Shown here: in pieces, positions 1,513-53,319 of the stretch
Position numbering within the stretch: the first letter of the stretch is position 1
Layout: the number at the start of each line of letters is the position of its first letter
Source of the DNA: Marsupella aquatica
Lineage: Eukaryota; Plantae; Marchantiophyta
Length of the DNA: 64,000 nt
Assembly: GCA_973895155.1 (NCBI GenBank)
Contig: OZ316893.1
Span: 7,774,963-7,838,962 of the forward strand
Direction: 5' to 3'
The notes under the pieces: model-generated
What the model was told of the DNA's origin: nothing
The model's input: only the letters and a program-made list of their open reading frames with translations
Database searches by the model: none
Position numbers and translations under genes: made by a program

Positions 1513-1516
1513 AAAA

Positions 1517-23168: not shown

Positions 23169-23575
23169 ATATCAATGTTTACAACAACATATTGTCATTA
23201 TGGACTTCTCCCATAAATGACTAACTCTAGGGTCAATCTTGAAATTAGGACATATCAGTGTTTACAAGAACATACCGTCATTATGGACTTCTCTCATAAA
23301 TGACTAACTCTAGGGTCAATCTTGAAATTAGGACATATCAGTGTTTACAAGAACATACCGTCATTATGGACTTCTCTCATAAATGACTAACTCTAGAGTC
23401 AAACTTGAAATTAGGATATATCGGTGTTTACAACAATATACTGTCATTATGGACTTGTTGCATAAATGACTAAATATATGGTCAATCTAAAAATCATGAT
23501 ATATCAATATTTACAATAACATATAGTCATTATGGACTTATTGCATAAATGACTACTTATAGAGTCATTAAAGAA
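23169..23575 (+). repeat. Tandem repeat, 83 bp x ~5, in the CACTA subterminal region
   Basis: ATATCAGTGTTTACAAGAACATACCGTCATTATGGAC... recurs at 23169, 23252, 23335, 23418 and 23501. Confidence 0.9.
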
Positions 23576-23654
23576 CCCAAGAGATATGAAGATTAAAATA
23601 CTCAATAGTCATTCCAGACACCGGTCATAATTGTAGAGTCATTGATATAGTTGA

Positions 23655-28420: not shown

Positions 28421-31400
28421 ATGATATGGGAGTACCAAATCACCCAAAATGGGGTCATTAGAGGAGTCCCTCATGCTGTCATTGAGGAAATAGGTTAAAA
28501 TGACCCAACTGGCCAGGGCTAGGGGTAGAGGTGTTTAGAGTTTAGAGTGTAAACCTAAACCCTAAACAATGGAAAGGCTCTGTTTGGAGGGATGCAGTTC
28601 CTCATTGGCTCATTTGTGTGTTGTGTCATAAATTCCATACAATGACAGAAAATGGGGTCATTGATGCTGAATACCCAACTATTTCATGCATTAACAATAC
28701 CTAATGGCTATTTTGGTCCCAATTTTGGTCTTCCTTTGGCCCCCTCTTCTCCATGGTCCCATTCACCACAATATGGGTGAAATATGGATTAACTAGGGCG
28801 GTGAATGAGGACAATAGTCAACAATATTAATACTCCAAACAAACAAAGCAAAGGCCACAAAACAACTGCCTTACACCTGGGTTATTGCAAAATGAACATA
28901 GTGTAGGGAGTTTTTATCAAGTTCTTAACATACCAGGACGTACTAATAAATAAGCAAAAACAAAGCAAAAACATCATTAACTTGTTAAGGCAAGCTTAAT
29001 ACTAAATTTGAGAGTGTTAAACTTTAGTGTCTCCTTTGCTAACCTTTGCCACAAAGTTTCAATAATAATGAGGAACAAGAGGGAAATTTAATTGTTTGTG
29101 ACTCAGTTGGTAGATGGACAAAATGTTTCTCTACAAATAAAGCTTTGTTTGGAGATATTCCACTTTACACAACATCTCTACTATCTGAAATGCTTGCACT
29201 TATGTAGAGAACCCATTCCCTGGGCCCCAACAAAGATACTGAAGCCCCCCTGCACGCATGAAGGTAATTTATATTTTATTGGCCTGTAATAATCATAATG
29301 CATTTTTTTGAATGAAGGGATTATATTAACCTTGGATTAGTATATTACAATACAAAAGCCTTATTATATCCATTCAAAATTTTATTTTTATTTCTAAGGA
29401 AAGGTGTGACATAGTCAACAAAAACATGTGTCATTTTTATATTGGTCCACATGTCATTGCATAAAAGTAGGGGTTATGTAACTCAAAATATAAAATTAAA
29501 TATTTTTGTAAGCTATTGAATCTACACTCTGGGCATAGTGGAGGTTCACGGGCCGTCTGGGGTAGATTTCACGGGTGGGGTGGGGCGTGGGCACGTTCTT
29601 GGTGAGAGGGATTTGAATCCTCCCGCGTGACCTCGCTTCCCTCCTGCACATTGTCCCTCATGCCCATCTTTAGCAGCCGCTGACCGCCATAGCTTTCCGT
29701 TGGAGAGTTGTGAGAGCGTGGGGAGGGATTGATGGTGGTTTGCGATGCTCTCGATCTAGATTTGTGGAAGGTCTGAAAAGAACAAGCAGATGTAGCTGTA
29801 CGTGAACATTGCGCACAGTGGATTGGGAGTATTGCTTCAGTGTGACTAGTCTTTGTATAATCCTATTGTTGGTGCTGAGTGGATGGATCGGACAGTTCAG
29901 AAAGTTCAGGCTTGAATGCCTTCGTCACTCATTGTGTTGTAGCGTTTTAACACATCATTCTTGTTTTGGACAAATTGATGGAATGGTAGGGCCCTGGGGG
30001 TAGGGCGCAGGGCAATACACTGTGTTAGTGTTGTTGAGTTCACGGTTTGATTCAAACCTTGCTGATTGAAATTTTCTAATTGATCAGTAGGATTATGAAC
30101 GAGGGTGGTAATCGACTGGTGGACCCACTCAAGGACTACTATTGGACTGGAGAATGTCTGGCCAAGACAAACGATGGCTCCAAGAAGAGTGGCGCACTCA
30201 ACTTCAATACTGTGGCATTGCTGACAACCTGATTGGCACAAACGGTCGGAGCTAAATCACAAGAATGCCTTTGTGATTGCTTTGCTTTCGATGGTAGTTG
30301 TGACTGAGAGCCTTTGAGTGGGGAGGACGGGGCTACAAGGTCGACAAGGCATATACAATTTTGGGCAAGAGCAAGATTTGCAATTGTAGAGACAAAGGAT
30401 GGATGCAACAATTTTAGTCACAGGCCTTTTGGTTTCATTTTAGCAGCCGAGGATGCAGCACTTCCAATCGCAAGCCTTCCAGGCTCACTTTGGCTGCAAA
30501 GGACGTAGCACTTGCAATTATTGCAGGCCTTCCGGGTCTACTTTTTGGCAACAGATCAAGCTAGGACACAGCTTGCAGCGGCACTTCCAGCCCTTTTGTA
30601 GACGGTATGTTAGCTTTTTTCGCTAATTAAAAGAATTTTAGGAAAGAAGAATTGGCACATGAATCATATATTGAAAAGCAATCCGTCATTTTGTATGTCT
30701 TCACAAGAAGCAGTGCCATACACGTCCATCACTAACTAAAATCCAATAGCCCAGTTGAATAGATTTTGTTGCATTTCAGAGGTAGCCGCATTTATGGAGC
30801 AACGTTTCTAACCGTGTATTGATTCCAAGGCTATTCAAGAACTTATAGTGCCTCTCGGATTTTGATTGTTTATTGCTTAATTTGCTAGTTGGCCAGTCAT
30901 ATATCTGAACGTCAGCATTTAGCGTGAGATTGTACAGATCAATTCTATGGTATCTGGAGCTATTCCTCACTAAATCCCATCTAGTCAAGTAATTACGTAC
31001 TATTGGTCTATTGTTCGGCGCCTCACTCAATTCAGCCAACAAGCCAAAAACGGTTCCGACAGATGGCTACGAAAACACATTGGAAACTACTATAAGTTCC
31101 AATTATGAGAGATATGATTGATTTTAATGTCTGAGAATTTGAAGGCAAGAAATCTGGCTTTATACTCTTTTTGGGGTCAGTGTTGGTAGAAACGGATCAT
31201 ATTTCTATGTGAGAGATTAGTTTAGTCAGTGTTTTATGATATTACAAAACCGAGAAGGATCAAAGCTCCGCGTTGTATTCTCAATCTGGATTATTTTCCC
31301 CTCAAGATCTTTGAAACCTTTTTGGCTTCGTACTACTACTGCCGTGGAATTTTTTGGGAATAATGATTCTACATGTAGACTAGCCAGGTTAAGCATGGAA

Positions 31401-34400
31401 AATGCAATTGTCACCGCCCTATACTTGGGAATAATTAAGTTTACCTGACTTAAAAATTGTTCTTTACAAATGTCAGAGTTCGGTCCCACAAATTGCAATA
31501 TATGACCTTTTAATAGAAACCTTTCAGCATTGGAACTTGGAAGCTCTTGGCCTGCTGCTGCTGCTGTGCCTGCATGACATAGTAAGTATTAGCGGACCCA
31601 CTTGGTCTAGCATTTCATTCCTCCTGCATGACATAGTAGGTACTAGCGGACCCACTTGGTCTGGCATGGATTGTGTCGTGGACTTCTACCTAAGTGCTAG
31701 AGGAATCATTCAAGCTATGTGATATGATAGCTATGTGACAAGAATCCTGTGATAATTTTGGTTCCAATATAGTAGATGTTTTTGACTTTTGATTACAGGA
31801 ATGTACAGTACTACTCACATCTTTTAGAAACGCCCTTCTTCGGGATGGGAACATTTTTGTAATCTCAAATAGTTATTCAATCTCAAAAGCTTACATCACT
31901 GCAGCTCTACGTTTGATTATAGAACTATACAATACTCCCATCTTTTAGAAAAGCACTTTTTGATGATGCAAACATTTTTTAATCTGAAAAGCTTACATCG
32001 TTGCAGCTCCGCTCACACTTTTTGGAAAAGTCCTGCGAAGAATAAATCTTGAACAGTTTTCAATCTCAGAAGTTTTATTATATGTTTTGCAGCTCTCACC
32101 CAGGACTTGCAGCCTACGTAAATTTGTGTGGTGACTTCTTCAATAACAATATGTGTGGTAATGATTGAAGCAGTGCCCTATTGGTGCAAGCGGTTGTGCC
32201 TGGAGAATAATTGTAGTAATCTTATTTTGGTTTTATGGTGGAGACCATTGTGCGTGAAGAATAATTGTTTTTCTTGGTAATGTTTGGAAGTGGTTATTTC
32301 AGGCTGTGGAGCTTTAAACAAAGGTGGAGGCCCTGTAGAAAAAATTGACACCCTGTCCCAACACGAGTGGCCAGAAATCCATAACAGGTAGGCCACATAG
32401 TGATGTAGCGCCCGCATATCTCATCTTGAATTGTTTGGTTTGGCTTTCCTCATTTCTTAAATTCTATTTTGTTATTCTCACTATTTTCAAAGGCGACCAA
32501 TACATCACGAGCATAGGTCATTTTCAAAGAAACTGGGCCACTTTTGGTTATCATCAAGAATCTTGTATTTTGAAGAAGTGTTGAGAACGGTCTGCAGCAG
32601 CTGTGTGTATTACTTTATGCTAGGAATCTCCTATCTTGTTTGGCATGCACATGGTGATGATCATCTCTGAATAGTTTTGTGTGCACAATCCCATGCAAAA
32701 CTTGGGCCTATATCATATTTTGTAATTATGTCATAGAAGATACGTCATTCAAACTAAGCCAGCAATGAGATGTGCAAAATATTCAAATTTATTCCAGCTG
32801 AAGTCAGAGAGTTACTACTTAATTTTCTCTTAGCTGGACTTGACAGATTGGTCTTCTAAGGTATGCACTTGTGCTCTATGGATCATTGGGGGTACTACCT
32901 ATCTTTGTCTGAAGTGGAGGGTGGAATTTTGACCATTAACAATCACTTGGCGAGCTTCCATTTTTCACAGTTGCTAAGGAAGGGGACTCGACTGAACAAG
33001 CAAGTTGTAAGAGCTCTACCACCCAGGGCTCTGCCCAACTATGTTGTAAGTTGGTATGTTTTAATCTTAGCAGTAAATGGTTATCACAAAATCAATAGTT
33101 CTACAGTTATCTAATATCATGCTTTCTTATTTGGTTGTTGTCCTTGGAGGTGGCTGTCACTACTTCAATTCAAGATGTAACTGGGTTTTTGAATCACATC
33201 GTAGCTACATCCACCAGCATGAAGTGTCTGACCCCTCTGTAAGTCTCTGATCCCGCTTCCTCATGTGGTATATTTTGTGGCACCTGGTTTTTATGGTTTA
33301 TGGTGACTGCAAAGAAACATTCATGATCAGCTACGAACTTACAAGTTCTGTGTGTGACATATAGGATTGCCTTTGCTTCAATACACATCTTGCTGTGATC
33401 AAATTCTTGTTAGTTTGACAGTGAGAATGTTGTGTTGGCTTGTGAGTCATTTACAGACCCCACATTCAAACGAAGAGATCAGTGCCATTGGGGTTGTGAA
33501 ATTGGATGTTGATGAGTTGAAAGGCACTATGAAGGAGTTGGCAAGCATGATGACAGTTACATGGATGGTCCTTTCTTTCGAGTGTGTGTGATTGAAGTGT
33601 TTGTAGATGTGGCATTGTCATTTGCTAATGCTGGGGAGAACCAGTCTAAGTTATCTCATGTGAAGGGGATGAATGCCCTGTGGAACTCTAGATTGCTCAA
33701 GAAGCAGTAGAAGCAGCCATGGGCCAAGAAACACTAGACATGATAGAAGTAGGTTTTGTAGAATGAGAATGACAACTTTGTTTTTCTACACACATTCAGA
33801 GTTGTTAGGTATTTCAGATTGCAGCACTTGATATACATCTAATAATATTTTGTATGCTTTTTCTCAATGTCTGTTTTCTTCATAAATTTGCATTGAGTTG
33901 AATAACTATTGTGTTCAATAACTATTGTGGGACTTAAGAATGTATCTTGTATGAATATCAATTGGATTTGTTAGGTATAGAATGTCTCTTTAGTGTTTCA
34001 TTCAGCAAATCTATTGAATGACTTTGTAGTGTATGATTCTTGAATGACATGAATTTTTGTCCAATATGACCATTTAAATTTGTATAACTCCAAGTCATTG
34101 AATACATGACTTGAATGACATATAAAATGACTGATCTAATGGTCATCATGAACTTTTGTAATTGCATCCAATATGACCCACCTCAAGTCATTAAAGACAT
34201 AGCCTTAATGACATATAAAATGATTGATCTTATGGTCATTATAGACATATATAAATGTGTCCAATATGACTCTTTTCAAGTCATTCCAGACATGTCATTA
34301 ATGACCAGTGTGTATCTCTACGCGTTTCTTCCCAATTTAACCATGTGTCTATATATGACTTGTCTATAATGTAGTCATTTTGGACACGTCCAAAATGACC

Positions 34401-37204
34401 CAAATTTATTGCCACATGGTTAAAATCCTTTGAGCCACATGTCACTCCTTGATTTGTTACATATTGTGCGTCATTTTGGACAAGTCCAAAATGACAAATG
34501 ATCTTTGTTTTTTAATTGCCACATGGCATTATATAATTGGGTACGGATACAATCGACGGTGAACGGTGATTGACCATTGACGGTGGTTTTTTGGTCATTT
34601 CAGACCGTTCACCATTTATGACCAAATCATAAATTAAGTCATTTCAGACGGTATAAAATGACCACATGTTTTTTGCGTCATTTGTCCGAAAGGACCGTGA
34701 CCAAAATGTCCGTTGTGACGCGTCTGGAAAGACGAGAATGACTGCGTCATTGTTTTGTTGAAAATACCATATAAATAGTCATTATTGCGGTCATAAAGAA
34801 CCTTGTTTTGTACTAGTGCAAGACGGTCATTCTGCCAGCTTCTTAGGTGTTCAAATGTCCCGACAAGAACACAGATATACGGCCCCAACTTTGTTGTACA
34901 GGGCACTTACAGGAGGAGACGAGAATGATGACGTTGGAAGAAACGATTTGTAGGACCTGGATGTTGATGGGATTGGTCAGACGCTTCCCATGCAGTATGG
35001 TATCCACATAATGCCTCGAAGAATACTGACCGTGGACGAAGCAATTTATCGACAGACTTGGAGATTACAATCAATGCTTGACGAGGCTAAAATGCCTCAG
35101 GCATTGCAGGATAGCATTTTGAAAATGCTATTCGGGAAGATTCAGATTCCCCCATCTACAAATTTGACACCTTCACCCGACCCTCCATCCGACATGGCAA
35201 ATGTAGGACTGGGCGCACTCCTGAGGCACGCTGGTGTGACGTGGGATGGAGGACGCCATGGAATTGATGCATTGTCATCATTCAAGGGTTTGTGTGGCAC
35301 GTTTGAGGCATATGGTATGCCAAAAACGCAGCGGTGGAGAATGTGTATTGGACAGAAGCCAAACTGGCATGCTCCCGTAGTCCTACCGCCGTCGCACCAA
35401 GATGACTACAATGTCCGAACTGGATTGAAGTGCAGTTGTTCAATCGCAAGGACAAAGTGGCATCTAGCCAGGGATTGTTTGCGTTGTTCGGAACGTTGCC
35501 CATTGGATGGTTGCGGCACGGCTCGCAAGGAGATGCTCCGGTTTGAATATTTCCCCATTGGTCCCATGTTGCGGAAGTTATGTAGCAGTCGATCTGTTTG
35601 TCATGAATTCCAGGCAATGTGGAGGGACAAAGATAAGTGGTTTAAGAAGGATTCCATGCCCAGACCTGTGTACAAGGAATGGTGGGACGGCTACCGTGCT
35701 TCCGAGCTATCCGGAACTACTTTTGGGACACTGGCACATAGTTTGAGATTCCCGTGTTATGCCGAAACTGTTATGCTTGCTATTCAACAACACCAAATAA
35801 ATGTCCTGAGTTGTTGGATACTGCCAACTGGGATAATGTCAGCAAACAATACGACTTCCAATGCTCAGATTGTGGATCTCGAGTCACGGCCCCGAAACAA
35901 TTTGCAAAGGTTAGTGATTTCTTCTTGCGTTACTGTTGTTGCGCACTTTTGTATGACCAGGGTATGGTATGGGTATTTTTAGGGTATTTATGGGTTATGA
36001 TAGAGTAACTTTTGTCTAACTAGTGTGACCCACCGCATGCAGGGTGATCCCCGAAATATTGCACTCATGGCACACTGGGATGGATTTCAGTCTGCCAAGA
36101 CTGCCCACAAAAGCACCTGGACTGTAGAGGTCCAAGTTTTAAGCGTCGGGTCTCAAACCAAAATTCCACCTATCCCTGTTCTTTTTATCCCGCCATGTGA
36201 TGACGACGACGTAGGAAAAAAAAAGCTGAAATGCTTGGATGCTTTCTTAGAACCATTCATAAGAGAACTGGAGGAGTTGTTTGTGGATGGGATAGAGGTG
36301 GATTACAATTACCCTGTGGAATTATTGGCTGAAGAGGATAATGTACCGAATGACTCCAGGTGTGTGCTACGAGCACTGTTAGCAGTTTTCACTGGAGATC
36401 ATCCCGCACAATGTAAATTTGGGGGCTGGAATGTTACAGGTTATTCCGCTTGTAGGAATTGTAAAATGAGCACTCGATGGATGAAGTGCAAGTTTGATCA
36501 TCCTCGAAAGGAGACTGACCAATCACAACCCCAAGGTTTTCTGGGAAGGGCTGTGTATGACAACAATAGGATGCAGATGAGATATCCACCACCTACACGG
36601 AAAATTGAAGAGGTGAGGGAGGCGGCCAGGAACATGACCAGGGCAGGAACAACTGCAGAGAGGATGAAGATAAGCAGGGAGTGCGGGATTTCAAACATGA
36701 CCAGGGCTTGGCGACTACATGAGCTTACTGCATTTTGTTTGAGCAAGGATCTGGTGTATGATACAATGCATATCCTTGCCTTGTGCCTTTTCAAGAAATA
36801 CTGCGAGCTTCTAGTTTTGAGTGTTCCCCGTCAACATCAAAAATAGTTTGAAGATGCTCTGGAGGAGGTTACTGCTAGGAAACTCGAGAGGTTTTGATGG
36901 AAGATGGCCTAAACAACCTTTTGAAAGATTGGGATACTTCAAGGCTAAAGAGTTCATGCGATTCATATTGTATTGTCTGCCTCATATCCTCCAACAGATG
37001 GACATTAGTGTCCACTCTGACCTTGGGACGCTTGGGATTCTTTTGGTAGAGATTGCACGCCTCTTTTATATCATAAGTAGACAAGAGGGTTGGACTACAG
37101 CCACATTGAAAAAAGGCAGGTCTCTACTGGCTTCTTGGAGAGTTCGCTCAGAAGAGGCTTGGGGCCCAAATGGAGCAATCCTAGAGCATGTTGCTGGTGA
37201 GTCA

Positions 37205-40200
37205 TGTAAGTAATGAGTAATTCCAAAAGTATAAAGAAACTGGGAATTTTAAAATTTTTTGAGGTATTTAAACTATGTTTACTGCTAACCGTAGAGTAAA
37301 CTGCATTCCGACTAAACTCTGACAATTTACAAGTCGCTAAGTAAACTTCTTACGAGTTTACTAGTTTACTAGATTACAGGTTTACGAGTTGAGTCTGATT
37401 ACGGGTTTACGGGTTGACAAGTATCGACAACGAGTGTAATTACTGGATTACGGGCTTACGAGTTGACGACTTACGAGTTAAGGGTTACGAGTTCGCGGTG
37501 TGCGGAGGAGCCTTACGATCGTGACGTCTTACGGCTATCTCAACGGACCTTTCTACGGGTTGGGAGTATGTGACGAGAGCAGCTGAAGCACAATAGAGAA
37601 ACCCGCCTTGTTAAGATCTCTTCTACCTCTATCTTATTCCACGATCTTAGTAGCAACTCGAGCAGCAAGAACATCCGGAGAACCAGCTATGGCAGACCTT
37701 GGAGCTGATGAGCAATACCGCGTTGAATCCCTGGTGTTTCCCAAGGCAATGTTGGTCCAAATCCCATAGGCGCCCAATAGCTACGCCAATTTAAGGATGA
37801 CGCTGCAGCAGCTGGGTTTAGAACTCCTCTTGCATATACCATGGAATGTGGAGTTAGACACATACTTGCAAGATTTTGTCAAAGGCACTACTATTTCCCC
37901 TGAATTCCATCAAACAATCCAAGCTCGACCAAGTCTGTGGACAGTAGAACAGATTTCTTTTGCCTTCGGTTGCTCATCAAAAGGATCGGCATTGTATTCC
38001 AAGAAGAAGGACTTGTCATCTCCTTACTTCTCTGGAATCAGAAACCTCACAAATGGATGGAATCTGACTCAGTGCAATTACCCTGATCTGAGAATTCTTT
38101 TGGAATTTCTAGTACCCATTCTCCATCCGAAAAAGCCAACTATGTGCCCTGTGTCCTTGGCTAACACTATTGTAGCTGCTCACAGTGGAGTTATAAAAGT
38201 AAATTGGGCCCTACTTTTATTTAACGTTATGAAAGATCAAGTAAGGAGCTTGAAAGCAGGGAGGACTACTTACTTACAACATTATCTCTCTCAACTCTAT
38301 TATACCTATGACTGTTTACATTTCGAGGAGAGAACAGAAAGGGGATTACTTCTGATCGAGATGGGCATTGAGGAAGAAATTGATGTGGAAGAACCAGTGG
38401 ATGCCATTTCCCTAAAATCCAATGATGAGGATATTGATATGGATATAGAAAATGTATCTGTAGGAGATCTTGAAGCTTTGCCTGAACACAACTTAGAGTT
38501 AGTCCAACACCCTCTGAATAACCAAGTGTACTCACGAGAAGTCAGCATGGGAGAACAACCTGCAGCAGAAGAAGATAAAGAGGATGAAGACCTCTTTGAG
38601 CAACAAGAGCATATTGCGGAACCAACAATTGTTGTCATCCTAAGGACCAGCTCGCCCACTCCTTCGAAAGCAGAATCAAATCAGCAACTCATTGATAAGT
38701 TGATATCTCTTCTCAGTTGCACTGATGATGGACTCTATGATGCTGTTAATGATTTAAGAATGGAAGCTATCAGCTTGAAGTCACCATTCCCTGACCAGTT
38801 AAGCCCTATCACGATGATCTCCCCCCAGGAGAATCAACACCAATGGAATATGTGACTCTCACCCTTGCTACTCAACAGGTCCCTCTTCTAAAATCAAGTG
38901 ACCTTGTTCCAGTGACAGAAGGTATCAGTTGTGCAGCTATCGTAGATGATCTACTAGAGATACTACAGTGTGAACCTCGACAGATAACATTTGTGGTCAG
39001 CAACTTAGTGCAACAATGTCCAACTGCTACACCTTCTCTTAGTCCAAGTTCCCACCCTTACAGTCCTGATTCCAACTACGAACCCACAGAAGGACCGCTC
39101 TACAATCAGCCACAGTATGAGCATCCTTACGTTCGAGAGGATCTACCTGAAGATTCTGATCCACCCTCTGATTTTAATTCCATTCGATCTTATGATAACT
39201 CCTTAACATCATCACCAAGGCAGGGATTTGAAGATGTTGATATTGCCTTAAGATCCAATCCAAACTTAGTAGCAGTTATCACCTCGTCTACTTAGACCCC
39301 CCGAAATGCTGTTATCGAGAACAGATACCCGAGACCTCCCGAATTCCAAGTACGCAGGTATGTGGAGACCTGTAAGATTATGCAGGCCAACAGACCACCG
39401 GTTGGAGAGTTCTGGAGATATTATTATATCAAGAAGACGGAGGCCAGTTATATCTTCGACCTCAGGTGTTTTGGGACTTCCAGGGTGGAGATGGCAGCAC
39501 AATTTGATGAGTTCTGGACTGACTCTCTCTACTTCCAACCTACTCTTGCTATGATGCTACTTCAAGGTGATGTAGAGGTAGAGGATCCAGATTTGGTTTT
39601 GGCATACTTTGGAAACTTTGCAGCCTATGCCTTGGATTTTGTGGTTTCTTTCCTGATGCAGAGTAAGAAGTCTACTGCTCTACAACATGATTACATTCCT
39701 CAAGAGCCCAAAGTTACCCTTGTTTCAACCAGTTCATTGGCTGAGAAACAGAGGATTTGGAATAATGTCACCACTTAGACCTTGACACACTTCAACCGGT
39801 ACTTCAGAGATGTCAGATGGAGACTTCAACCTTTCTATTCTAGGATGATGAATAGTGATGAGTTCCTGTATCATTATCCCCAAGTATATGCTGCTACTTG
39901 TAACAACTATGATGTGATCAGGATGTACAGAGAAGCTCTTCGTATAGATTCATGTTATTTGATGAAGAGAATGCCTTTGATGTATCCTGAGAGACAACTG
40001 AGGTGCCTACCTTACTCCAGAGGATCCCCACGCCAAGCTGAGCTGATGGAGGTTACCCAGAATCGAACTGTTACTCTTGTGGAGTTGCTAGAACCAGAGG
40101 ACATCCGACAGCAAGCTTGAAGAAGTCTTTAAGTGATTTAGTTAGTTTAGAGTAGTGCATCTCATCTGATTTGTATAAAAGTGTTCTAGAGCTTTAAAAT

Positions 40201-41325
40201 CTGTCATACTTCTTTAGCATATAGTCTATACTTAGGAAAGTCTGCTGGCAAAATCTCAGAGTTTTCTGACTTATAGTTAGGAAGTTAAAAATAGTTGAAT
40301 TCATCAAGTCTTTACTTTACCGCGATTACGAGTTACGACTTAGTTAGACTTTTACGAGTTTAAGAGTTTACTAGTTCACAGCTTTTACTAGTTTACTAGT
40401 TTACGAGTTCATACTTAGCCATTTTTCCGGCTTTTCACTCATTGAATTGCCATTTTAACTTTTTGAGGGGTATGAAGAGGCATGTCTCTTCGAGCCTGTG
40501 GCCTCTCACTCTGTAGATTTTGACTATAAGATAGCTCTACCACTAGTGTAGATGATGGTAAAGTTTAGCAATTTTTGCCTTTCCTTGGTGTTCTGCCAGT
40601 TGATCATGAATGTTAAGAGTTCGAGATCAAGCTTGACACTATGAGAAGACTTTCCTCCTTCTTGTGGTTTAATCCTTTGAATAAATCATGGGAAGTAAAA
40701 TTCCAGTTGTGTAAATCTTATGAGATGTGATGACAGATTCCTCTTTGGTGACTCATTACAATCTCCTGAGTTCTTGAAGTTAACTCACTGAGTTTAAGTC
40801 TTATTTGAAATTGATGGATTTTCTTTCATGTTGCTTAGTACCATCTAAATGTCGAAGTAGCTACCTTTTAGATCTTATCTAAGTACCACTTAGAAAGAAA
40901 GGATAAGACGTGTTGACGGCATTTTAAAAGGTACTCTAGTAAGCAATTTAGATCTGAAAAGCAATATAGATTTGAATCCTTAAGTCTTTTCATTTTGACT
41001 TATGTCTAAGGAGTAACCTTGGAAAATTCCAGACTCCCTTAGCATACTTTGAGATATTTTTCCTTGTGTTTTGTTAATCATTTCCTTTTCATTAATTTAT
41101 GGTTACATGATGCTGAGTTATCATTGAAAACTACTCACCGCTGTGGAGCGATCTTCAAAATACCTTAGTAAAGTAATCAATCCTGATTACTATGTGTTAA
41201 AGAGAGTCCTTAAACTCTCCTTTGTGTTTTTATGTATCAAATCAACCCCATCTTGTTCTTTACGGGAACGAATACCGAGTTTGAAGACCTTTAAGTGTGT
41301 TTTTGGTTCTTCATAACAAACTACA
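37205..41325 (+). mobile_element. Solo LTR, 4121 bp (family B), TSD AGTCA, in an intron of the CACTA transposase
   Basis: AGTCA|TGTAAG...CTACA|AGTCA; no terminal direct repeats, no gag/pol; removing it leaves a ~120-bp GT-AG intron. Confidence 0.85.
37689..40120 (+). pseudogene. LTR-encoded ~800-aa protein (plant-transposon accessory domain, acidic linker, unknown C-terminal domain)
   Basis: ATG 37689 is in frame with 37797-38855 (LGLELLLHIPW...GWNLTQC...LLEFLVPILHPKKPT...VNWALLL...YLSQLY), followed by frameshifted pieces 38843-39295, 39362-39778 and 39782-40120. Confidence 0.75.
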
Positions 41326-44298
41326 AGTCATTTTGTTTACACTTGCTACATGACCATGATGACAGTGGGTATTCATTGTTGGTCGATCCATCATTGCATT
41401 GAGGTGATGTTCTAATCCCAATGTGTTTTGATCCCAATTTTTAGGGAGTGGAGAGATATTTGATGGGATAGAACGACATGGCCCACACTATATTTATTGG
41501 TGCTACCGCTTCAAGAGGATGGTATCAGGCTATGGACGCACTAGAACAAATCAGAAGGACCAAGAAGTCACTTATTCTCTTCATTTTGCACGACGCTTTT
41601 TCACAAAAATATCGTCGTACATTTGGGAAGATGACGATGGACTTTTCCCTCATCAGAGGGCTTTGGAGAAAATTCATGCATCCCTGCGTGTCCCTGCGGA
41701 GCATCGTAAGGAGCACAGGTGCAGAGTCATTGTACCACCATCTGAATGCCCACACTGGCACGGGAATTCGGTGCCAATAGTTTCAAGTCAAATTCTAGCG
41801 ATGGAATTGTGGGATAGTATGATATCCTCTGTGGAGTCATATGGTTGCAAGCACATGTTGTTGAGCAAAGGGGTTGGCATAGGCTCAAACAGGAAGCTGA
41901 CAAAGAAACTGGGGCTGTCCGCCAGGATGTCATTGAAGCAGCATTGGACAGATGTTGGAGTATTCAACATCAGTGAGGACCACGAAATTAGTGAATCTTG
42001 GACTCCATTGCGATCAGCTGTGTGGAGAGCTGAAGTGTACAAGCCTGGCGATCACGTTGTTGTACTGGTAGATGGGAGTACAGATGCTTCACATCCTCAA
42101 AACTGGAAAGCAGTACTCCAAAAGATTTTCATGCACGAATTCGATGGCCACATGGACATATTCTTTGAGGCGGATTGGTATAAACAACAGTATACACAGG
42201 ATCCTCGGCGAAATTTACTGTCTTGGGAACGAGATGAGTATTCCCTGTTTACTCTTTTGGAACCAAAAGTATATCACGCACATGGCAACAACTGTAGGCC
42301 TATGTCAAGAATTCTACACAAGTTCTTCCCAATTCAAAGAGGCGGGAGGGAGGTTGTAGCCTTGGAGATTGGAGATACTTTAGTACGGGAACTCCCTACC
42401 ACAATTGCAAACTGCCCTCCTTTCCCAGAGGCAGGGGACATAATGATTGCAATAGCGGACTCACTTTCCATCCCTGACCTGTGTGTTGTAAGGGAAGTCC
42501 TCCTTCCCAGGCGCGATGCGGCAACGGAAATGCAAGCGGTGGATGTAGGAGTGGACGGTGCTTCTTACGGGGAGGAGGAGGAGGAGGAGGGAGGGGATGA
42601 CATGGCAGAATCGCACAATGCAAATGATAATGAGAAGGACCTCGGGAAGGTTGGTGTGAGTTGGTTGTCTGTACAGGGTTCTCGGTCAAGTTGCCCAATC
42701 TACAAGGCAGCATCACAAATTGATGAACACATCACCTTTCAAAGATTAGTTGCGTTGAGGCTTGATTTTCGTGCAATTGGACTTCACCATGGTATCCCTG
42801 TACGGTGGAATACCGTATAGTAATACCATGGAAAGTCCCAAGTACGACAAAAAGAAAGATACTATGGGATATGACAACACTTGAGAGGCGCCATTTTGTC
42901 AATAACTGAATACTGACCAGGATGCAGACCGTAGGATGTGTGAGATGCAGGTCAGACATGAGCCTGTGATGGTGACGCTATGGTGCTTTGCACGGGGTAT
43001 GATCGGGGACGGCACGGGTCACAAATATCATTGGATTCTGGGTCGGATGTGACATAATGGATGGGTATTACCAGGTTACTTGGGAACGTGATAAAATGTA
43101 CGTTGGGGTAGTGAAAGGGCGGTGCCACCGATCGGAGACAGAATCTTTGTTGTGAGATCTACTACTGAAATTGCAGTGACTAAATGATGCATGCCACTGC
43201 ACACATGAACGCCCTATGAGGAATTCCTTATAAGCTTTGGGCAATGGTGCGAGCTCCTGAGCTCCAGTCTTTGATTGTGTAGGTTTTGTAAATCTTTGTG
43301 GCTGACAAGTCTGCCATTGGATAACACTTGGGGTGTTAGCGACGGAAGCAAGTATCGACGAGCGCGGGGTGACGTTGGAGGATTGGTGAAAGTATGGTTC
43401 GTCAACATGATCGTCCAGCGCCGATCGCATTGTTGATGCAAAGCGACGAGGATATCACAGATCGTATGTACCCCTCTTTCACTCAACTCCTTTGGTTCTT
43501 AATTCCGCATGAAGTATATTGATCGATTGTAAGAATGGCGCAACTAAGGCCTGCTTTGTTTGTACAGTCGTGACGGAGACGATTTGGAAGTCATGCTCAG
43601 GGAGGGTAATACGGCATTATCTAGGGATGGCCCTTGCAGACCATAATTTAGCTAGAAAAGCTGGTTTGGTTCCATGTTTTGAACTCGTCTGGCCCAGAGT
43701 TGCAATTCCTGCTGTAAAGGAGTTCGCAGTAGGGTATGATCAAGGTCGAAACTGTGTGTCATTCCGGGGTGCAACTCACACATTCAACAGAGAGGTATTG
43801 CGAGCTGCATTTGCTTTTTTGTCTGGAGAATGGGCCTGATTTAAACCTGGGTTGGTCCAAGGTCAACTAAATTCCATGTTTTCTGCCAAGATGAAAGGCA
43901 ACCCATACAGTCTAGACAAAATCACTGCGCCATATATGCAGTGGTGTGGGATAATCAGGGCGATTTCTGAATTGCTCTCAGGCAAGAGCAAACCCACTCA
44001 AGTCACCTCAAAAGACATGTGGGTAACTATACTGGGCGTATTGGTGGGATACGATTAGGGTACGTGATCGTTTTAGAGGAGCTGAAACTCCCGTGGTGAA
44101 GCCCAATTGGGCACATTTGGTGTACGATAATCTGACGAGTGAGATCCTCAGGTTAAAGTCACACCTATCAAAGAATGGTGTCGTAGACAAACAACTTCCT
44201 TGCTACTATGGCACTGCTATAACGCAGATTCTTGTACACTACGGGTATTCGCTGGAGGAGCTTATGGTCGAACAACACGAAGATGATCATGAGGACGA

Positions 44299-44478
44299 CG
44301 ACGAGGAAGGGGACAATGGCTCACAAGAGGACGAGGAAGGGGAGGCTGGCTCAGAAGAGGACAAGGACGGGGACAGTGGCTCACAGGAGGACGAGGAAGG
44401 GGATGACGGATCACGAGAGGACGAGGAAGGAGAAGATGGCTCACGAGAGGACGAGGAAGGGGATGGTGCGTCTGACGG
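44299..44478 (+). repeat. Coding tandem repeat, 30 bp x6 (DEEGDxGSxE)
   Basis: GACGAGGAAGGGGA...GGCTCAC..GAG units, visible in both DNA and translation. Confidence 0.9.
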
Positions 44479-44577
44479 TGAGGGGCAGCCATCGGAGGTT
44501 GCGCCCCAATTCTCCAGGGATAAACAGAAATGTCCTCAGGGTGAGCACAAATCGCCGCCCTTTGTGCCAGAGTGCAT

Positions 44578-47500
44578 TGTGATGCCTAGCCAGGAATCAC
44601 TCGGCCAGTTAAGTAGGTAAAGCAGGAGTGCACCCTAGAAACACCTTAGTATAGGGACAAAACAAGGAAAATATAAACAATTAGGGGCGACTATGGAACC
44701 CGGGCCGAGGCCGGAGGTAAGGACGCTGGGGGTGAAAACAAGATTAGGGTTAGGGCGCGCTAAGCATCGGCGGCTAGGAAGGATCAACGGGAGGAAGAAC
44801 CGGAAGAGGAGAGGGGTAAGGAGCGCTTGCAGGGAATGGTGGCTCATTTGCGAGCACGAACTAGGCAGACGACTACGGAAGGCCAACTACTGTCAGCTGC
44901 TTAGGCAAGCACTCAGGGAGAGAGTAGATACCGACGATCGACCTAAGGAGGGTATGAGCAACGTCAATCAAGCGGCACATTTCTGGGGATGCCTGTTCGA
45001 ATGGGCAACTGAGTACATCAAGACTTACGAGGACAAAGAATCAAAAAGGGCAGCTCGAGAACGGCAGGAGCTCGCTCGATTGTGGGAGCTGCAGAAGACG
45101 GCTTTCTTAGGAGGCGAACTCATCAAGGCTGAGTTCTTGTGGACTCCTACTTCCAATCAGCTCGACGATCTTCTGTTTTGCGAAGATAGAGTTGTCGGCA
45201 TCCGAGAAGCCATCAAACGCTGCAACAACATACACTGGGAGTTGAAGGGTAGCACGGAGGGGTGGACAAAGGCAACCGTGCTAGGAGAGACATCCACGGG
45301 AGCCGAAATGAAGAGGAAGGGAGCCGTCAACGATGAAGCCACCCCGGCAAAAAGAACGAGGTCGACGGCACCAAAGAAGCCAGACGAGCAGCAGAGCAGG
45401 AGGCAGGGAGAAGCCGAAGAGGAGGACGATCCCATCAATGCCATTCCAACCAGGGATGACACCTGGAAGGGCTGGGCGGCAACCCTACCAGAGGAGGTGC
45501 AACTACATTTTGCACGGGAGGAGGATGCATGCTTTACGGCCATGCAGACCAAGAAGTACCAAGGCTTCATGGCCGGATCCGGCTTAGAGGCCTTTGTAAG
45601 ATTACCATGGCTGAAGCCGGAGGTGCCGGATTCAGACTTATTGGAATTTGTGGGGTCATGGGAACCCGAGACCAATTCCACGAGGATATATGGGAAGGAT
45701 TTCTATCTTACTCCCAAGGTGATTGCCGAAGTGTTTGGCTTGCCGATAGGCAATAAGACCAAAGTTGATACCAGGAAGACCTTGCCTGACAAGGAGTTCC
45801 GGTCGTTCCCCGGGCCATCAACGAAGAATGGCTTCTTCCGGAACACCTGCACCAACCCGCACATAGGAGAGATGATCGACTTCTTGCGGGTGACCATGCA
45901 TTGTAACTTGCCGAGGGCAGAGATCGGCAAGGCACAGGTCTATCTGGCAGAGAGGCCAGACCCAAGCCGGGACTACAACGGGTACCTCCTCAACCAAGTG
46001 AAGAAGATCTTAAAGGAGGAGCAGTAGGTAATCGGCATGGGGAGCGTGTCGCGGCTTGGCTATCACATGCCGCTGTTGTGCCGGTATGCCAGAGGTCAGA
46101 CCTTTGCCCCAGTACTTCCCCTGCAGGTAAGGACACCCGAGGAAGCTCCAGCACCAAGGCCGGTAGCAGAGAAGCCTCAACCACCTGTTAGCCCTACGAT
46201 TGAGTAGGTGTTTAGGCCAAGGAAGGAAGACTTGCCGATGCAGCAACCAAGCATGCAGAATCTGCTGAAAATGCTGGAGAAGGAAAAGACGGCACTGGCA
46301 CCAGCTTCGGCAGTGGCACCAATACAGGACATTGCCCCAGAGGTCAACCTAAGCAGACTTAGAAGGGAAGACCCCTTTACCGAAAATAAGGAGAGAATCA
46401 GGCCAGAATCCAAGCCGGGTGTTCGAATGTACGTGGGAGTCTCAAGCTTTGAATCTGAGGCAAAATTGCCTGAAGCTCCTACCGGCGAAGACGAGAGGGA
46501 GAAGCCGGAAGTCCAAGGGTTGGAGGAGGCAATGGAGGACTGCAGCCATGATAACTCCGGCTATGGGTTGGACCATCACGTTCCAGGAGTAAGGACTTGT
46601 GGCCGGTTTATCCCCACACTTCCAAGGGTAGTTCGAGGGGACCCCAACCAGCAGAGTAGCCCCGAGTCTCCCCCACCAGATGTTGCTCCCCCGAGCTTTG
46701 ACGGCATAAAGCAGACGGCATAGGAATTCCAGGAGCGACTTAGGGAAGCAGAAAAGGCAGCCCTGGCTAGGGAAAAGGATTTGCCAAGAGGAGATTGGCC
46801 GGAGGACATCAGGCGGCTAGCCGAAAAAGGAAGCAAACCTCTAGCCACGATTGAAGAGATCCGCAAGACGGCTTGGGAGCAGAGGCCGCGATGGGCGATG
46901 CCGATCACTTCTACTTACTCCACCTACGCTAAGAATAGAGCCATGGAGTATGGTGAGATATGTGGGGAACTTGCGCTCGGCATCTTTGGGGAGGAGTTGG
47001 AGGTAGGACCCTTTTTCCATAGGGAGCAGTTGGAGAAGCACCAATTAGAAGAAGCGGTGGCTTTAGAGAGAAGCAAGAAGGACGAGGTCATCTGGCGGCT
47101 TAGGAGGATGGAAGCCGAGATTGAAGATCTAAGGGCGGCCAAGAAAGCCCAAGATGAACTGCGGATTAAGCGGCATGAACTGAACATCATGCAGGGGCAG
47201 TTGGACACCGCGCAGGCTGATAATCAGATTATCAAGGATAAACTGACTCAGACCCAGGAAGAATTGGCCGACGCAATCAAGGACAGGGAGAAATGGAAGA
47301 AGGAGCTGAGAGACGCAGAGGAGGCCCATATAGCAGTCAACAACCGGGTCGCGGCGGAGACTCAGAGAAGGGAGAGGGCGCTGAAGGGAGAGCTCGAGAT
47401 CATCCGCCGAGCCCTTGAGCAGAAGGAGGCCGAGTTAGGGAAATTCTATCAAGGGATTGTTGCGCTACAGCAGGAGCTTGCGTCCCTGACGGCCAGCTTC

Positions 47501-49243
47501 AAGGCTGACCTGCGGGAGAAGGACGCCCAGCTCGACCAGACTTATGCCAAGATGAATAACATGGAGTCTGAGGTCGTAGCGGAGCTCGACAAGGAGCTAA
47601 GAGCAGCCCAGGAGGAGAGGGCTACCACCAAGAAGGAATTGGAGGAAGCCCACAGGGAATTGGAGGAAGCCAAAAACGAGCTGGAGGAGGCACGTAAGGA
47701 CCTGGATGAGACCCAGGAGGAGTTGGAAGAAATCACGAGGAAGATGGAGAACCTACAGCGGCGGGCCGACAACCAAATAGAGCGGCTGAAGAAACAAGCC
47801 GCAATATTTAAATGCTTAGCTGCATCAGGTCCATCTCCAGTTGGGGAAAACCAGTTACCCGGGGTGGTAATTGCCGAAGGACCAGCCGTGACACACGGCC
47901 CGGTGCCGGACGTTGGCGGCAAGGGGAAGGAACCGGCTATGGAGATAGTGAAGAAGAAGAAGCGGAAACCTTCGGGGTCCGGAGGTTATTCGACCCCTCA
48001 AGCCGTACTCAAACCGGTACCAACCTCCGGCATGAACACGGCAATAGATTCCGCTACCACCAAAGGTGGGGATGGCGCGACCCAAGCCGAACTACTCAGT
48101 AATGAGGCCGGTATCCCAGATCCACCTCTTGAGCAAGCCGGGGAGGCCGTGGCCGATGCTGAGGCTGTAGCTGAGGCTGATGTTGAAGCCGATGCCATTG
48201 CCGGGGGTGGACCCAGTCAGGCCGATGGAGAGTTGACTCAGTCAAGGGCAGGTAATCTGTCAGAGAACGAACCTACGGCAATGGCTGAGGTGGAAGCGTT
48301 GGGGGCGTCCACTGAGGAATAGCCACCGCTGCCATGACGGTGGTGGAGGGCCACTCCTTTCAAGGAGGGCGGACGTGGAGGGAGGAGGCGTGAGTGGGCA
48401 GGGCGGGCTCAGATCTCTAAGTTTAGGATTAGGATCAGGACCAGGAGGCGGCCCTGACACTTAGCTTAGTGGGATTGCGGTTCCACTGGTAAGAGCAACA
48501 CTTGTACTCCTGCCTCGCTGTACATAGGTAGATCCAGTTAGGTAGATTAGGCTTACGCTGCAAAGAATTAGGCGGATCCACTACCAGGATAAGTACCTGG
48601 GCAGCAGGGAGCTCAGGGCCTCTTCTTTAGCAAGTTTTTAGTTTGCACCAGCCGGGCTGGGATCAAGTAGTAAGAGAAGCTCTCGGTTAGTCATACAGTG
48701 ACCCTTGTGTATATTCATGTTACCTCATGCCTAAGAGCTGAATAGAGTTGGCCTCACGGCTTAGTTCGCAGAGCTTGTGTATGAGATGTACTGTTTGTAT
48801 GGCAAGTGCATGGTATGACTCAGTCAGAAGGAGTCATTTTGCTATTTGTGTGTCGCATTAACTTGTGTGAAGAGTGCCCACATCAACCAATAGAGGAAGG
48901 AAAGTAAGCAGGGGAGTGAGAGTTGGATGTGTCGAGCTGAGAGAGGTCTTAGCGGCTTAACCAAGCCTATTGGGGATCATTCCGGCGGCGGAATCGAAAC
49001 ATACCTAACAAGACGGAGGGGAAGACAAGGGAAGGCCTAGATTAGGCCGGCTACGTATCTCATGACCCGATGAAGGATCTGTCCAGTATATGTGTGTAAA
49101 ATGTTAATAGTAGTAGTAGAAGGAGGTTAGCAGCGTCCCATGCCGCTAAGCCGCGGAAACGGCCTCACCAAGCGCGAAACCTGTGGGAATCGGCTTGCGC
49201 TGGGGGGGTTTCTTGGGTTTAGGGAGCCATGGGATGCACCACA
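44578..49243 (+). mobile_element. Solo LTR, 4666 bp (family A), TSD TGCAT
   Basis: TGCAT|TGTGATGCC...GCACCACA|TGCAT; homologous to 1517-6225; no PBS follows; excision restores ...PPFVPEC-MRVLSQHIRAL... in frame. Confidence 0.96.
44693..48322 (+). pseudogene. LTR-encoded 1209-codon frame with three TAG stops
   Basis: ORFs 44693-46027, 46208-46723 and 46781-48322 are in one frame; each TAG is CAG in the other LTR copy; ATG lies 115 nt inside the LTR. Confidence 0.92.
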
Positions 49244-52200
49244 TGCATGCGTGTTCTATCACAGCACATACGTGCGCTAGAGGTTGATCTTGCAGAAAAA
49301 TCGGACATGCTACAAGAAGCAGTGGAGGATCATAAAAAATTGGTCCTCGATTTGATGAAAGAAAACGACAGACAGAGAGTCCGCATATTAGAATTGGAAA
49401 GGCAGGTTGGGTTGCATTCAGAACAAGTTGGCAGTGAGACATCGAGTGGAGAAGGTGAGAGCAAAGGTGACGAGAGATGTTGTGAGGTTTTGGTAGGTCT
49501 TGGTGCCAGGGTACATGCAGGTTATGATGCAGAGGCATCACAGCGTAGCCCAATTTCAGAGTTACCGCCAATTTCTGGTGTTCCAACTATAGTAGAGGTA
49601 CCAGCAGCAGCACCAGCAGAAGCAGGTACTTTCCCAATTCATTATCCTACTTCAAAGATACAGCAAGAGGAGTCTATGTCGAGTGGAGGTGACTCACCAG
49701 TTTTGGTAGAGTTACAGGCAGCCGCACCACCAGTACTGGCAAAGGTACCGGCATCAGAAGAAGAGATGTCACTTTTAGAAGGAGAGGCACCAAATGCTGC
49801 ACCAACATCAAAAGTAGAGGTCTCAGCTACAGAGGAGGACAAATTGTCGGGTGCAATTGCATCAGAAGTACCAGGGTCACCTCCGATTTCTGTTCTATTT
49901 CATGTTCCAACTAAGAGTCCGGGATGGGAGGCTAGGACAAGTCACATTTCACGACAACCAAATTTGCCTCGTGCTTCAAAGAGAGGGCGAGAGGACTCTA
50001 TTCCGAGTGGCAGTCACTCACCAACGAAGAGGAGGGCTATCAAAGTGGAGGAAGAGGAAGAGGTAGAGGAAGAAGAAGAAGAAGATGACGAGCATTCAGA
50101 ACAAGACATTCACTGGGAAGAGTGTGCCATAGAGAGTGGAAAGGTTAGCGATTTTTTTTCCTTTGTTGTGTGATTACTGTTTTTTCAGAAACAATGTTCA
50201 AGCATATCTAACTTGGCTGTGAGCGGGATCCGCAGATTGATATCCAAGGGTCTCACTTGATAGAGGAGGCATGCCCTCCACTTGGTACAATGACTACAGC
50301 TCTATATCCACACCAACGGATTGGTCTTGCATGGATGTTGGAACGCGAATCCGGAAAAAGCTCTCCAATTGGTGGGATGTTGGCGGATGACCAGGTACAA
50401 AAGCCCCCAAATTAAGCCGAAGTTGCACTCATTGTTTTCATTCAGCGGGATACTTTGGGGGTATTTTTGGAGTATGTTAGGGGTACGCGCGCACCTTGTC
50501 TGCAAGTGAGTGGGTCCCTGACCGTTTTCTTGGCTTGGATTTTTTTAGGGAATGGGGAAAACCATGCATGTCATAGCGCTATTTCTTGCGAATCGCCCTC
50601 ATAAGTGTGGGCCAACTCTAGTTGTTTGTCCAGCCAGCGTGGTGATTCAATGGGGCCAAGAAATAGCTGCAAGGACCTCCAAGATAGCAAAAGTGAAGGT
50701 CCTCCTCTACCACAACAAGAGGAATAAAGACATCAACTTTATTTCAAGCCATGACGTGGTTGTCACTACGTACTCAATCATGACAGGGGAGTCTCCCATT
50801 GCTCCAAAGACGTCCAGTATGCCAAAAGGGAGTATGAAGAGACCTGTAAAAAAACCTAGACTTGCAGGTCCACTGTTTAAGATTAGTTGGCTTAGAGTAG
50901 TCTTGGATGAGTGTCATGTCATGAAAAATAAAACTAGTCAAAATTTCAAGGCCTCACGTTGTCTCAAGGCAGAGAGGAGGTGGTGCCTAAGCGGTACACC
51001 CATACAGAACGAGGCTTCTGATCTGTTTCCTTACTTCAGTTTTCTGAGGTATTATCCTCTAGGAGAGTGGAAGGAATTCTCGCAGTTAAAGAAGCTGCTG
51101 AAGACAAGGCCAAAGATAGCGAATGGCATCCTCTCGAAACACTTGGTTGCGATTGCGCTCAGGAGAGACAAAAGTAAGCGTGCATGCATATATCATGGTA
51201 GAGTTCACTTTGTTTAATCCCAAGCCTGGTTTCTTTATCAATTGTGCATTTACCCTGCCACTGTGCTTACATGCAGGCATACTCCCACTGCCCCCTAAGA
51301 CGATCGAGGTGCAAATTGTTGAATGGAGAACACAGCAAGAACGAAACGCTTATTTTGATCAGGAGGAAAAGAGTAAGGAGTTATACAAGGTACGTAAGGC
51401 TCTTAATAATCCCCAATGTTGAAGACGTATGAGAGTTCAATTTGATCCCTTGAAGGTGTCTGTTCGGTGGCAATTAATGTGCCTGTAATGTTGTAGGAAT
51501 TTCGTGATGCCAAAAGAGGTGCCTTATCGAATGTGTTGAGCGTTCTGCTCCGGTTGCGACAATTTGCAGTGCACCCAAAACTTCCTTCCTTATGTAAAAT
51601 TCACGAAGAGGAGATCGGGAACTGCAAAGAACGCCCCTTAGTGAGCCTCAACGAGCCCGACTTGTGTCAGAGTTTCAACAATTGAAGATTGGAAGTGCTT
51701 GCGTGGACTGCAAGGTGAGTACAGTCACTCTGTGTATGGGGTATGGTTGGGGTATTATTGGGGTATGATTGAGGTACTTCAGTTAATGTGCTTTGCCTAA
51801 CAATTTTTGCACGCACTCACTTTAACGGTTGGATTGTGCAGGGGGGCTTGATTGGAAGTCCATTTCAGATTTCTGGCTGTGGCCATGTATACTGTGGCAT
51901 TTGTGCAATAGACCGGGAAGCTGGAACCTGCAAATTGGCAAAATGTTCAAAATATGTGACAGCCCAGGTCCTATACAGGCCAGCTGATTAGAGGCTAGTG
52001 AATGGTGGTGCAGAGTCAAAAGGGAAGGCACGAAGAGAATATGATGTCCGACACCCACCTTCTCCAAAATTTGATGCAGTCTTGGAATACCTGAAGTCAA
52101 TTCCGCTGGACACTACAGGACAGGGCAGCAGCGAAAGCTTTGTGCCTAGGCAGAAGGCTCTTGTTTTCTCACAATGGACTTCGTGTCTCGACATGCTTGA

Positions 52201-53319
52201 GCCACACATTCTGAAGGCTGGTCTAAAGTTCACAAGGATTGATGGAGGAATGAATTCCAATGTTAGAGAACAAGCCTTGAATGATTTCAAGATGACCCCA
52301 GAGGTACAACCGTCATTATCCGTGCAGATCGGTGTCTGTATTTGTTCAAAGGGTAAACTCTTTATATTCTAATTAAACTGTTTCTACTCATTTCATGCAG
52401 ATCAGCATTATCCTCTTGTCCTTGATGGCAACGAACACAGGACTCAACATCACTGAGGCTACACATGTTCTTATGGTAGACGGGTGGTGGAATCCCACGG
52501 TAGAGGACCAGGCCGTCGATCGGTCACATCGTATAGGGCAAACAAGGCCGGTGAAAGTCGTCAGGTTTATCGCCGAAGATTCGATTGAGTTGAAGATTTT
52601 GGAGCTGCAGGTAAGATTAGAAGTGCTTGTGTGGACTGCAAGGTGAATAAAGTCACTCTGTGTATGGGGTATTATTGGGGTATTATTGGGGTATTTCAGT
52701 TCGCGTGCTTTGCCTAACAATTCCTGCACGCACTCACTAGTAATGATGAATTACGAATTCCATATATACAGTGGTCTCTAATTGTACGCATGTTGCATGT
52801 TTTGTGCAGAACAAAAAACGAGTGATGATCAGGGACATCATGTATGGCTGTGCAACCGGGAAAAAAGATAACATGGAACAAAATCTGGAGTTCATACTGG
52901 GAGAGAATCGGCAACAGAGGTTCAATGCATCAGAGTAGCTAGATGAGTTTTAGCTAAGGTTCTCTTCGGTGCTTGAGTCAGTTAGGCAGTGACACTCTTA
53001 CTGTTCGTTTACTTGTCAGTGCCACTCTCGTTTCCTCCCGTTGTGATTTTAGTGCAGCGGGACAACGATGAGACTAGGAGGACAGAGCCTGAGTGGGTCT
53101 TTCCTTGCCACATATGTACCTATTCGAGCCTCTTGCGGGAGCATTATGAATTGAACACTTCATCTTTGAATCATGTCCACTGTTTCTCATGTCCACTGTT
53201 TCTTTGGTATTCTTTCTTGTGTTCTTTTGTGTGTGTTTAGGGTTTAGGTTATGCACTTGCAAGACACACCAAATGATTACCCTAGGGACATAGGTAATTT
53301 ACAAGCATAGCAGCCCGTC

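Follow-up and report, generated by a model that had tools for sequence, protein, structure and literature searches.

A decayed gene, likely CACTA-borne, predicted to join a putative VANC/PMD-like domain to a CHR27/28-like SNF2-RING helicase in Marsupella aquatica

The transposon nest and the CACTA transposase

The window, meaning the whole stretch of Marsupella aquatica DNA analysed here (64,000 nucleotides), is a eukaryotic, intron-bearing nest of transposons throughout. On its plus strand lie a CACTA transposase gene and, downstream, a gene in which an N-terminal domain precedes a SNF2-RING helicase. This second gene is a decayed copy, likely of gene 2 of a multi-copy CACTA transposon. In its intact form, it would probably encode about 1,250 residues, in which a putative VANC/PMD-like DNA-binding domain is followed by a linker, acidic and of low complexity, and then by a SNF2-RING ATPase of the CHR27/28-like type.

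The transposase gene is of the tnp2 type (22557..42820, plus strand) and is preserved in pieces (22557-22742, 34819-37199 and about 41444-42820), split by two insertions. It matches Pfam Transposase_21 with an E-value of 5.1e-9 (36.1 bits, cut-off 28.6), and a viral scan with the transposase returned no match. Seven sequencing runs match the stretch or part of it, none of them on record as RNA, and the contigs of six were compared. The 5' end of the transposase gene contains a 12-kb CACTA element without a recognised transposase (22743..34818, unstranded), with CACTAG termini and the TSD CAA; contigs of runs X1, X2 and X6 cease matching at 34819. A solo LTR, LTR-B (37205..41325, plus strand), with TG..CA ends and the TSD AGTCA, sits in a transposase intron, and its open reading frame at 37770 holds the domain modelled below. 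The empty-site joint of LTR-B (37199->41326) occurs in three of four runs.

The transposase ends 800 bp upstream of the fusion gene, on the same strand. Per-contig depths of the transposase and the fusion gene are 165-215 versus 198 in X1, 331-443 versus 386 in X2, and 1528-1649 versus 1545 in X3; the shallowest contigs listed for these runs have about a tenth of this depth or less. Moreover, one X1 contig extends from the 3' end of the transposase (42631) across the N-terminal domain to 44570 and carries 30 differences over these 1,940 bases. Because these depths are high and several variant contigs occur at single sites (up to 9 at 44522), a multi-copy family is suggested, contig depth itself not being a copy number. 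An outer TIR pair or TSD around both genes was not found in the window, and the ends may be hidden by nested insertions or lie outside it. The closeness of the transposase, the equal contig depth in three runs and the contig spanning both genes make it likely that the fusion gene is cargo of a CACTA element. The N-terminal domain had been labelled LTR-type when the sequence was first read; with a CACTA DNA transposon as the likely carrier, that label fails as a statement of origin and denotes a distant family only.

A host origin was considered as an alternative. In this scenario, a CHR27/28 paralogue received a TE-derived first exon, stands beside the transposase by chance or through segmental duplication, and would serve host silencing. 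Domesticated PMD genes and a PMD-phosphatase fusion are known precedents (PMC5418596), and the intron-rich structure of the gene and the lack of TIRs in the window agree with such a history. Nevertheless, the depth and contig continuity that the gene shares with the transposase in three runs, the variant contigs, the long branch of the helicase described below, the position within a nest of transposable elements and the dead state of this copy make domestication quite improbable, and cargo of a CACTA element remains the preferred reading.

The fused reading frame and its helicase

The fusion gene starts at the ATG at 43627 or earlier. A candidate extra first exon (43394..43463, plus strand), recognised from sequence only, would be followed by an intron reaching to 43567 and lies in frame with this ATG. 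The N-terminal domain (43627..44290, plus strand), probably a distant VANC/PMD/Transposase_32-like member, is interrupted by a stop (43837-39) and a frameshift (44024). It is followed by an acidic tract derived from 30-bp repeats and then by the left flank of an LTR insertion site (44267..44577, plus strand). Beyond the insertion, the linker (49249..50143, plus strand) comprises a short heptad-like helix recognised by eye, a low-complexity Pro/Ser/Glu segment, a basic patch and an acidic run, and it ends at a phase-0 donor.

The inserted element is a solo gypsy LTR, LTR-A (44578..49243, plus strand), with its own long internal open reading frame; it inactivates the window copy. It has TG..CA ends and the TSD TGCAT, which confirms the solo LTR of the sequence-only reading. 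Over 4729 aligned bases, it shares 90% identity with 1516-6225 on the minus strand, which is the 5' LTR of a gypsy element and is succeeded by a PBS-like motif and then gag. All motifs quoted for the three proteins in the sequence-only reading were located in the window; the LTR-A string bearing TNCTR is that of the 1516-6225 copy, the copy within the gene having TNSTR. An LTR-free version of the LTR-A site was found in two contigs of X3 and one of X6, that is, in two of four runs.

When the solo LTR and one TSD are excised, positions 44030-50143 form 481 stop-free codons, a length that none of 20,000 base shuffles kept free of stops. The intron at 50144-50235 is T-rich, begins with GT, ends with AG and is in phase 0, so that the predicted splice from 50143 to 50236 joins this frame to the helicase exons, in agreement with the link first suggested. 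Use of the alternative acceptor at 50188 would break the frame. In a host-similarity test, the spliced junction scored 22.9 bits versus 20.8-21.1 for unspliced controls, an uninformative difference of about 2 bits. None of the contigs in the compared runs spans the N-terminal part and the helicase together, and the connection between them comes from the window and the empty-site joint.

The helicase is encoded in seven exons on the plus strand. Exon 1 (50236..50394) covers the Q-motif region to motif I, which reads LADDQ, and exon 2 (50549..51173) contains Walker A (GMGKT), Walker B (DECH) and motif III and matches Pfam SNF2-rel_dom with an E-value of 5.8e-37. Exon 3 (51277..51389) is followed by exon 4 (51497..51714), in which the frame shifts near 51622 and whose end falls within the first RING CxxC. 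The remainder of the C3HC4 RING, a stop at 51989-91 and the start of Helicase_C lie in exon 5 (51842..52303). Motifs V and VI, with the arginine fingers, are in exon 6 (52401..52610; Pfam Helicase_C, E 1.8e-9), and the last exon (52810..52938) includes the stop codon. The Pfam order is therefore SNF2-rel_dom, partial RING and Helicase_C, with a RING match that is weak by itself (E 0.005, half-domain exon). Walker A and B, motif III, motif VI and the eight RING ligands are all retained.

Relatives of the helicase are mostly plant CHR27/28-like proteins. Motif I reads DDQ in 100 of the 120 matches listed, 10 others having DEM or DDM and 10 giving no match, and DDQ thus appears, from these 120 matches, to mark the CHR27/28 subfamily. 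The best host match is 37% identical across 646 columns; over the columns used for the tree, the figure is 40%. In a quick tree of 38 of the 120 listed matches together with the window sequence, the end branch has a length of 5.27, and the nearest row is a moss protein, in a position that is unsure. The term remodeller is applied to this part by analogy, from kinship with CHR27/28. A search for intact or fused relatives with the helicase yielded no close or fused relative, a metagenome scan with it gave no match, and an LTR-B-family domain was present at E<=1 in 0 of the 120 listed helicase matches.

Similarity to host proteins starts at the first acceptor (50236) and is not traceable upstream; since nothing host-like can be traced there, this start fits a joining through the intron. 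A methionine near 50290 stands ahead of the Q motif. An alternative explanation assumes two products instead of a functional fusion: a retained intron would end the accessory frame at 50171-73, and the helicase exons would be either passive cargo or translated from their own methionine. It would account for the unspliced frame, which closes 10 codons past the donor, for the methionine and for the lack of host similarity upstream of the intron. What makes it improbable is that the donor is in phase with the acceptor of a T-rich GT-AG intron, that a 1-base deletion in this intron is carried, and tolerated, in X3 contigs, that a separate promoter would have to lie within coding sequence, and that the catalytic motifs have survived a divergence of about 63% from host proteins. 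It is considered probable that intact copies express the N-terminal domain and the helicase as a fusion.

The window copy itself is a pseudogene, broken in both halves. One stop and one frameshift had been anticipated in the N-terminal part, and both are present; two further lesions, the frameshift near 51622 and the stop at 51989-91, lie in the helicase, which brings the number to five with the solo LTR included. The four extra bases at 44024 are missing from all covering depth in X1, X2, X3, X4 and X6. X4 lacks the helicase frameshift in all of its depth (1207 of 1207) and X3 in 1378 of 2424 (57%), the other 43% of X3 depth at 51622 being without the frame-restoring bases. Near-fixed differences in X1-X3 consist mostly of A>G (41-45) and T>C (39-45), compared with G>A (7-12) and C>T (7-15), and this bias indicates that the window copy drifted by C-to-T decay. 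Such decay can account for both of its stops.

Relationships of the N-terminal domain

The sequence-only reading held that the LTR-A protein, the LTR-B protein and the N-terminal part of the fusion gene share one pattern. For the two LTR domains this is firmly upheld. The LTR-B domain has 298 relatives at E<=0.001, and a profile was built from the 126 long-enough domains among the best 150 of 298. Against LTR-A, this profile gives 20-22 bits, with an E-value of 5e-6 among 852 six-frame windows; the best reversed control has an E-value of 2.6. On the basis of this difference, the LTR-A and LTR-B domains are homologous by sequence comparison.

For the fused domain, the signal is much fainter. 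Its score against the family profile is 5.8 bits over two colinear stretches, exceeded by 1 of 1000 shuffles, and in the window-wide six-frame scan its E-value of 3.5-4 is on par with the controls and not significant. When its three pieces were scored separately, pieces one and three did better than their shuffles at the expected profile positions (7 of 300 and 2 of 300 shuffles, respectively), and the middle piece (18 of 300) aligns out of register. Three control pieces from the same locus are at chance against the profile. In pairwise comparisons, 37 of 2000 shuffles reach the score of the fused domain versus LTR-A, and 4 of 2000 versus LTR-B.

These results bear on the possibility that, although the fusion truly exists in a CACTA setting, its N-terminal domain bears no relation to the LTR and VANC-like domains, the shared motifs being due to chance and the captured helicase having an orphan N-terminus. 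The low profile score, a six-frame E-value like that of reversed controls, the number of shuffles that reach the LTR-A score, the misaligned middle piece and the missing Pfam match would all be expected under this explanation. It is less compatible with matched stretches that lie, in the expected order, toward the two ends of the domain, with the rarity of higher-scoring shuffles in the profile and LTR-B comparisons, with control pieces at chance, and with an N-terminal placement in front of acidic and helical stretches that parallels the LTR proteins. An orphan N-terminus is consequently regarded as unlikely, and homology of the fused domain to the LTR-A/LTR-B family as fairly probable from sequence.

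A resemblance of the pattern to Transposase_32 or the plant mobile domain had also been proposed. Searches with LTR-A, with LTR-B and with each of three pieces of the fused domain gave no match to Pfam Transposase_32 or PMD at E<=0.1, and at E<=0.01 none of 30 LTR-B relatives matched them. In the Atlas, the LTR-B domain lies beside Transposase_32 clusters (0.93, 173 shared features). LTR-A is placed there beside unnamed plant clusters, and its leads, at 0.90, are DUF1985 and a 14%-PMD cluster. Database relatives of the fused domain were found neither among longer proteins (409 candidates) nor among those of similar length (7 candidates). The one metagenome locus that matched a piece of the fused domain did so over 9 residues; it gave neither a profile score nor a tblastx match to the window and was dismissed as chance.

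The LTR-B domain was modelled from a 79-row alignment with a pLDDT of 95.8. Among 48,161 PDB chains, the best match of the model is DNA-bound VANC21 (PDB 9LNK), with 184 of 201 residues aligned at an rmsd of 4.4 and a Z-score of 6.5, which is below the 7-8 that is a common best score for this tool and within the range (Z <8) in which a match can reflect a common arrangement. The next match has a Z-score of 4.3 over 60 residues. Foldseek gave no match to the model at E<=0.001 in PDB or BFVD, a PDB sequence search with the LTR-B alignment returned coiled-coil noise only, and the literature search found no paper on the VANC21 structure. Since the match covers the whole domain, is separated by a gap from the next one and is in line with the reported structural homology of VANC and MAIN (PMC13547354), the modelled LTR-B domain is likely to be truly related to VANC21. 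The VANC link of the fused domain itself is weak and takes two steps, one from its sequence to the LTR-B family and the other from the LTR-B model to VANC21.

Comparison with known systems and a proposed role

VANC proteins of VANDAL elements (MuDR) are TE-encoded accessory proteins, and it is VANC21 to which the LTR-B relative has its best structural match. They bind their own elements and remove silent marks (PMC10398659), and they are described as dicot-specific (PMC13547354). The present case differs in that the carrier is likely a CACTA element and the domain is joined to an ATPase; additionally, the fused domain was compared by sequence alone. Arabidopsis CHR27 and CHR28 share with the helicase the order SNF2-RING-Helicase_C, the motif I DDQ and a RING ending in CxxxxC, and the best full-length matches belong to their group. 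The fusion is set apart from them by an identity of at most 37% (40% over tree columns), a very long branch, a replaced host N-terminus and a multi-copy TE setting. CHR27 and CHR28 act with SUVR2 in silencing and nucleosome positioning (PMC4260354).

TE-related domains also serve as fusion modules in MAIN/MAIL proteins, in MAIL3, which is a PMD-phosphatase fusion among domesticated PMD genes (PMC5418596), and in PMD-MULE transposase fusions. In contrast to these, there is no Pfam PMD match here, and the partner is an SNF2 motor. A role of MAIN and MAIL1 in TE silencing had been cited at the outset. Such a silencing role is indeed described (PMC5418596), but PMD proteins also oppose Polycomb silencing: MAIL1 and MAIL2 are reported to do so while associating with chromatin at DNA motifs (bioRxiv 10.1101/2024.09.27.615353). 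The extra open reading frames of plant gypsy elements, Transposase_32 (PF20167) and Athila ORF1 (PMC11728184), are comparable through the Transposase_32 clusters that neighbour LTR-B in the Atlas; they differ in that the proteins studied here have no HMM match and their reading frames lie inside LTRs. DNA transposons with chromatin enzymes are represented by TET/JBP in fungal EnSpm/Plavaka and SET in oomycete Harbinger/MuDR elements (PMC12730594). EnSpm/Plavaka is similar to the present case as a CMCT-clade transposon with a captured chromatin enzyme. SNF2, by contrast, has 0 occurrences in the main text of that article, and the enzyme here is fused to a putative targeting domain.

Hence, transposons with chromatin enzymes, PMD fusions and extra open reading frames are already known (PMC11728184, PMC12730594, PMC5418596). 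SNF2 cargo in plant CACTA elements and a VANC/PMD-SNF2 fusion were not found in full-text searches, which covered few subscription journals and no supplements, or in the reviews PMC13317346 and PMC6431247.

The sequence-only reading had proposed a TE-derived targeting domain coupled to a remodeller motor. The fused frame, the predicted splice, the TE setting and an LTR-B relative that is likely to fold like VANC21 speak for this proposal; it is qualified by the likely CACTA carrier, the weak family link of the fused domain and the pseudogene state of this copy. With regard to anatomy and origin, a TE-borne N-terminal domain joined to a captured CHR27/28-like helicase in a CACTA setting is slightly favoured. 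The most complete interpretation, to which a probability of roughly 0.35 is assigned, is that a plant CACTA family captured a silencing motor of the CHR27/28 type and fused it to its own VANC-like domain, giving a one-chain, sequence-targeted anti-silencing remodeller. On this view, two gypsy families that are very abundant in the same genome likewise encode a VANC-like fold within their LTRs, a location far removed from the dicot MuDR elements that are known to carry VANC.

If this is correct, the helicase exons, introns included, would have passed from a host silencing gene into the element and would have been joined to the element's own accessory gene via the phase-0 intron. The N-terminal domain may bind a motif in the element, as VANC21 does, and thereby tether the ATPase there. 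The tethered ATPase could move nucleosomes or compete for the partners of host CHR27/28, and its action would keep the element open and transcribed. An anti-silencing direction is suggested by analogy with VANC action (PMC10398659) and with PMD proteins opposing Polycomb (bioRxiv 10.1101/2024.09.27.615353); it is somewhat favoured once expression, CACTA cargo and domain homology are granted, and the full anti-silencing reading of the fusion stays tentative.

VANC proteins are not known to have a catalytic domain through which they would remove silent marks. If the interpretation holds, a VANC-like-SNF2 fusion would point to nucleosome remodelling as one route of this removal, and a natural fusion would offer a single-chain system for VANC-type anti-silencing. 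It would further show a host silencing factor put to work by a transposon for its own benefit. Were the first intron retained, translation would stop at 50171-73 and yield a shorter product that lacks the motor.

LTRs with an internal gene

In two LTRs that are not related to each other, both 4.1-4.7 kb in length, a long ORF is part of the LTR sequence: the gypsy-type LTR-A, with copies at 1516-6225 (-) and 44578-49243, and LTR-B, at 37205-41325. Because the ORF lies within the LTR, solo LTRs retain the gene. The predicted structure of the LTR-B ORF domain has its best structural match in VANC21, a DNA-binding anti-silencing protein of VANDAL transposons, and the domain of LTR-A is, judged from its sequence, a homologue of the LTR-B domain. 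In summed contig depth, LTR-A stands at about 100 times the flanking gene, the decayed helicase fusion at 43627-52938 (+).

A CACTA element of 12 kb

A 12-kb CACTA element (22743-34818), with CACTAG ends and a CAA TSD, interrupts the CACTA transposase gene at its 5' end. The element's ends are rich in ATGAC/GTCAT, it holds an 83-bp array as well as a 578-bp tandem array, and no recognised transposase was found within it.

Other ORFs and a duplicated RING exon end

Cys-rich ORF pieces at 6221-8351 (-) and 55817-56744 (+), without an informative Pfam match, are presumably transposase-like and, by eye, apparently related to each other. The 253-codon ORF at 18721-19482 (-), whose sole Pfam match is DUF4640 (E 0.056), may resemble an OB fold of the RPA type that bears a zinc ribbon. 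Three weak matches to NSD-type PHD fingers (Pfam, best E 0.0003) occur in the ORF at 62797-63426 (+), possibly another chromatin-reader cargo gene.

In the helicase gene, the last part of the first RING exon, together with its intron (51685-51821), is copied into the last intron (52613-52738) at 84% identity, and the duplicate brings a second donor-like site into that intron.
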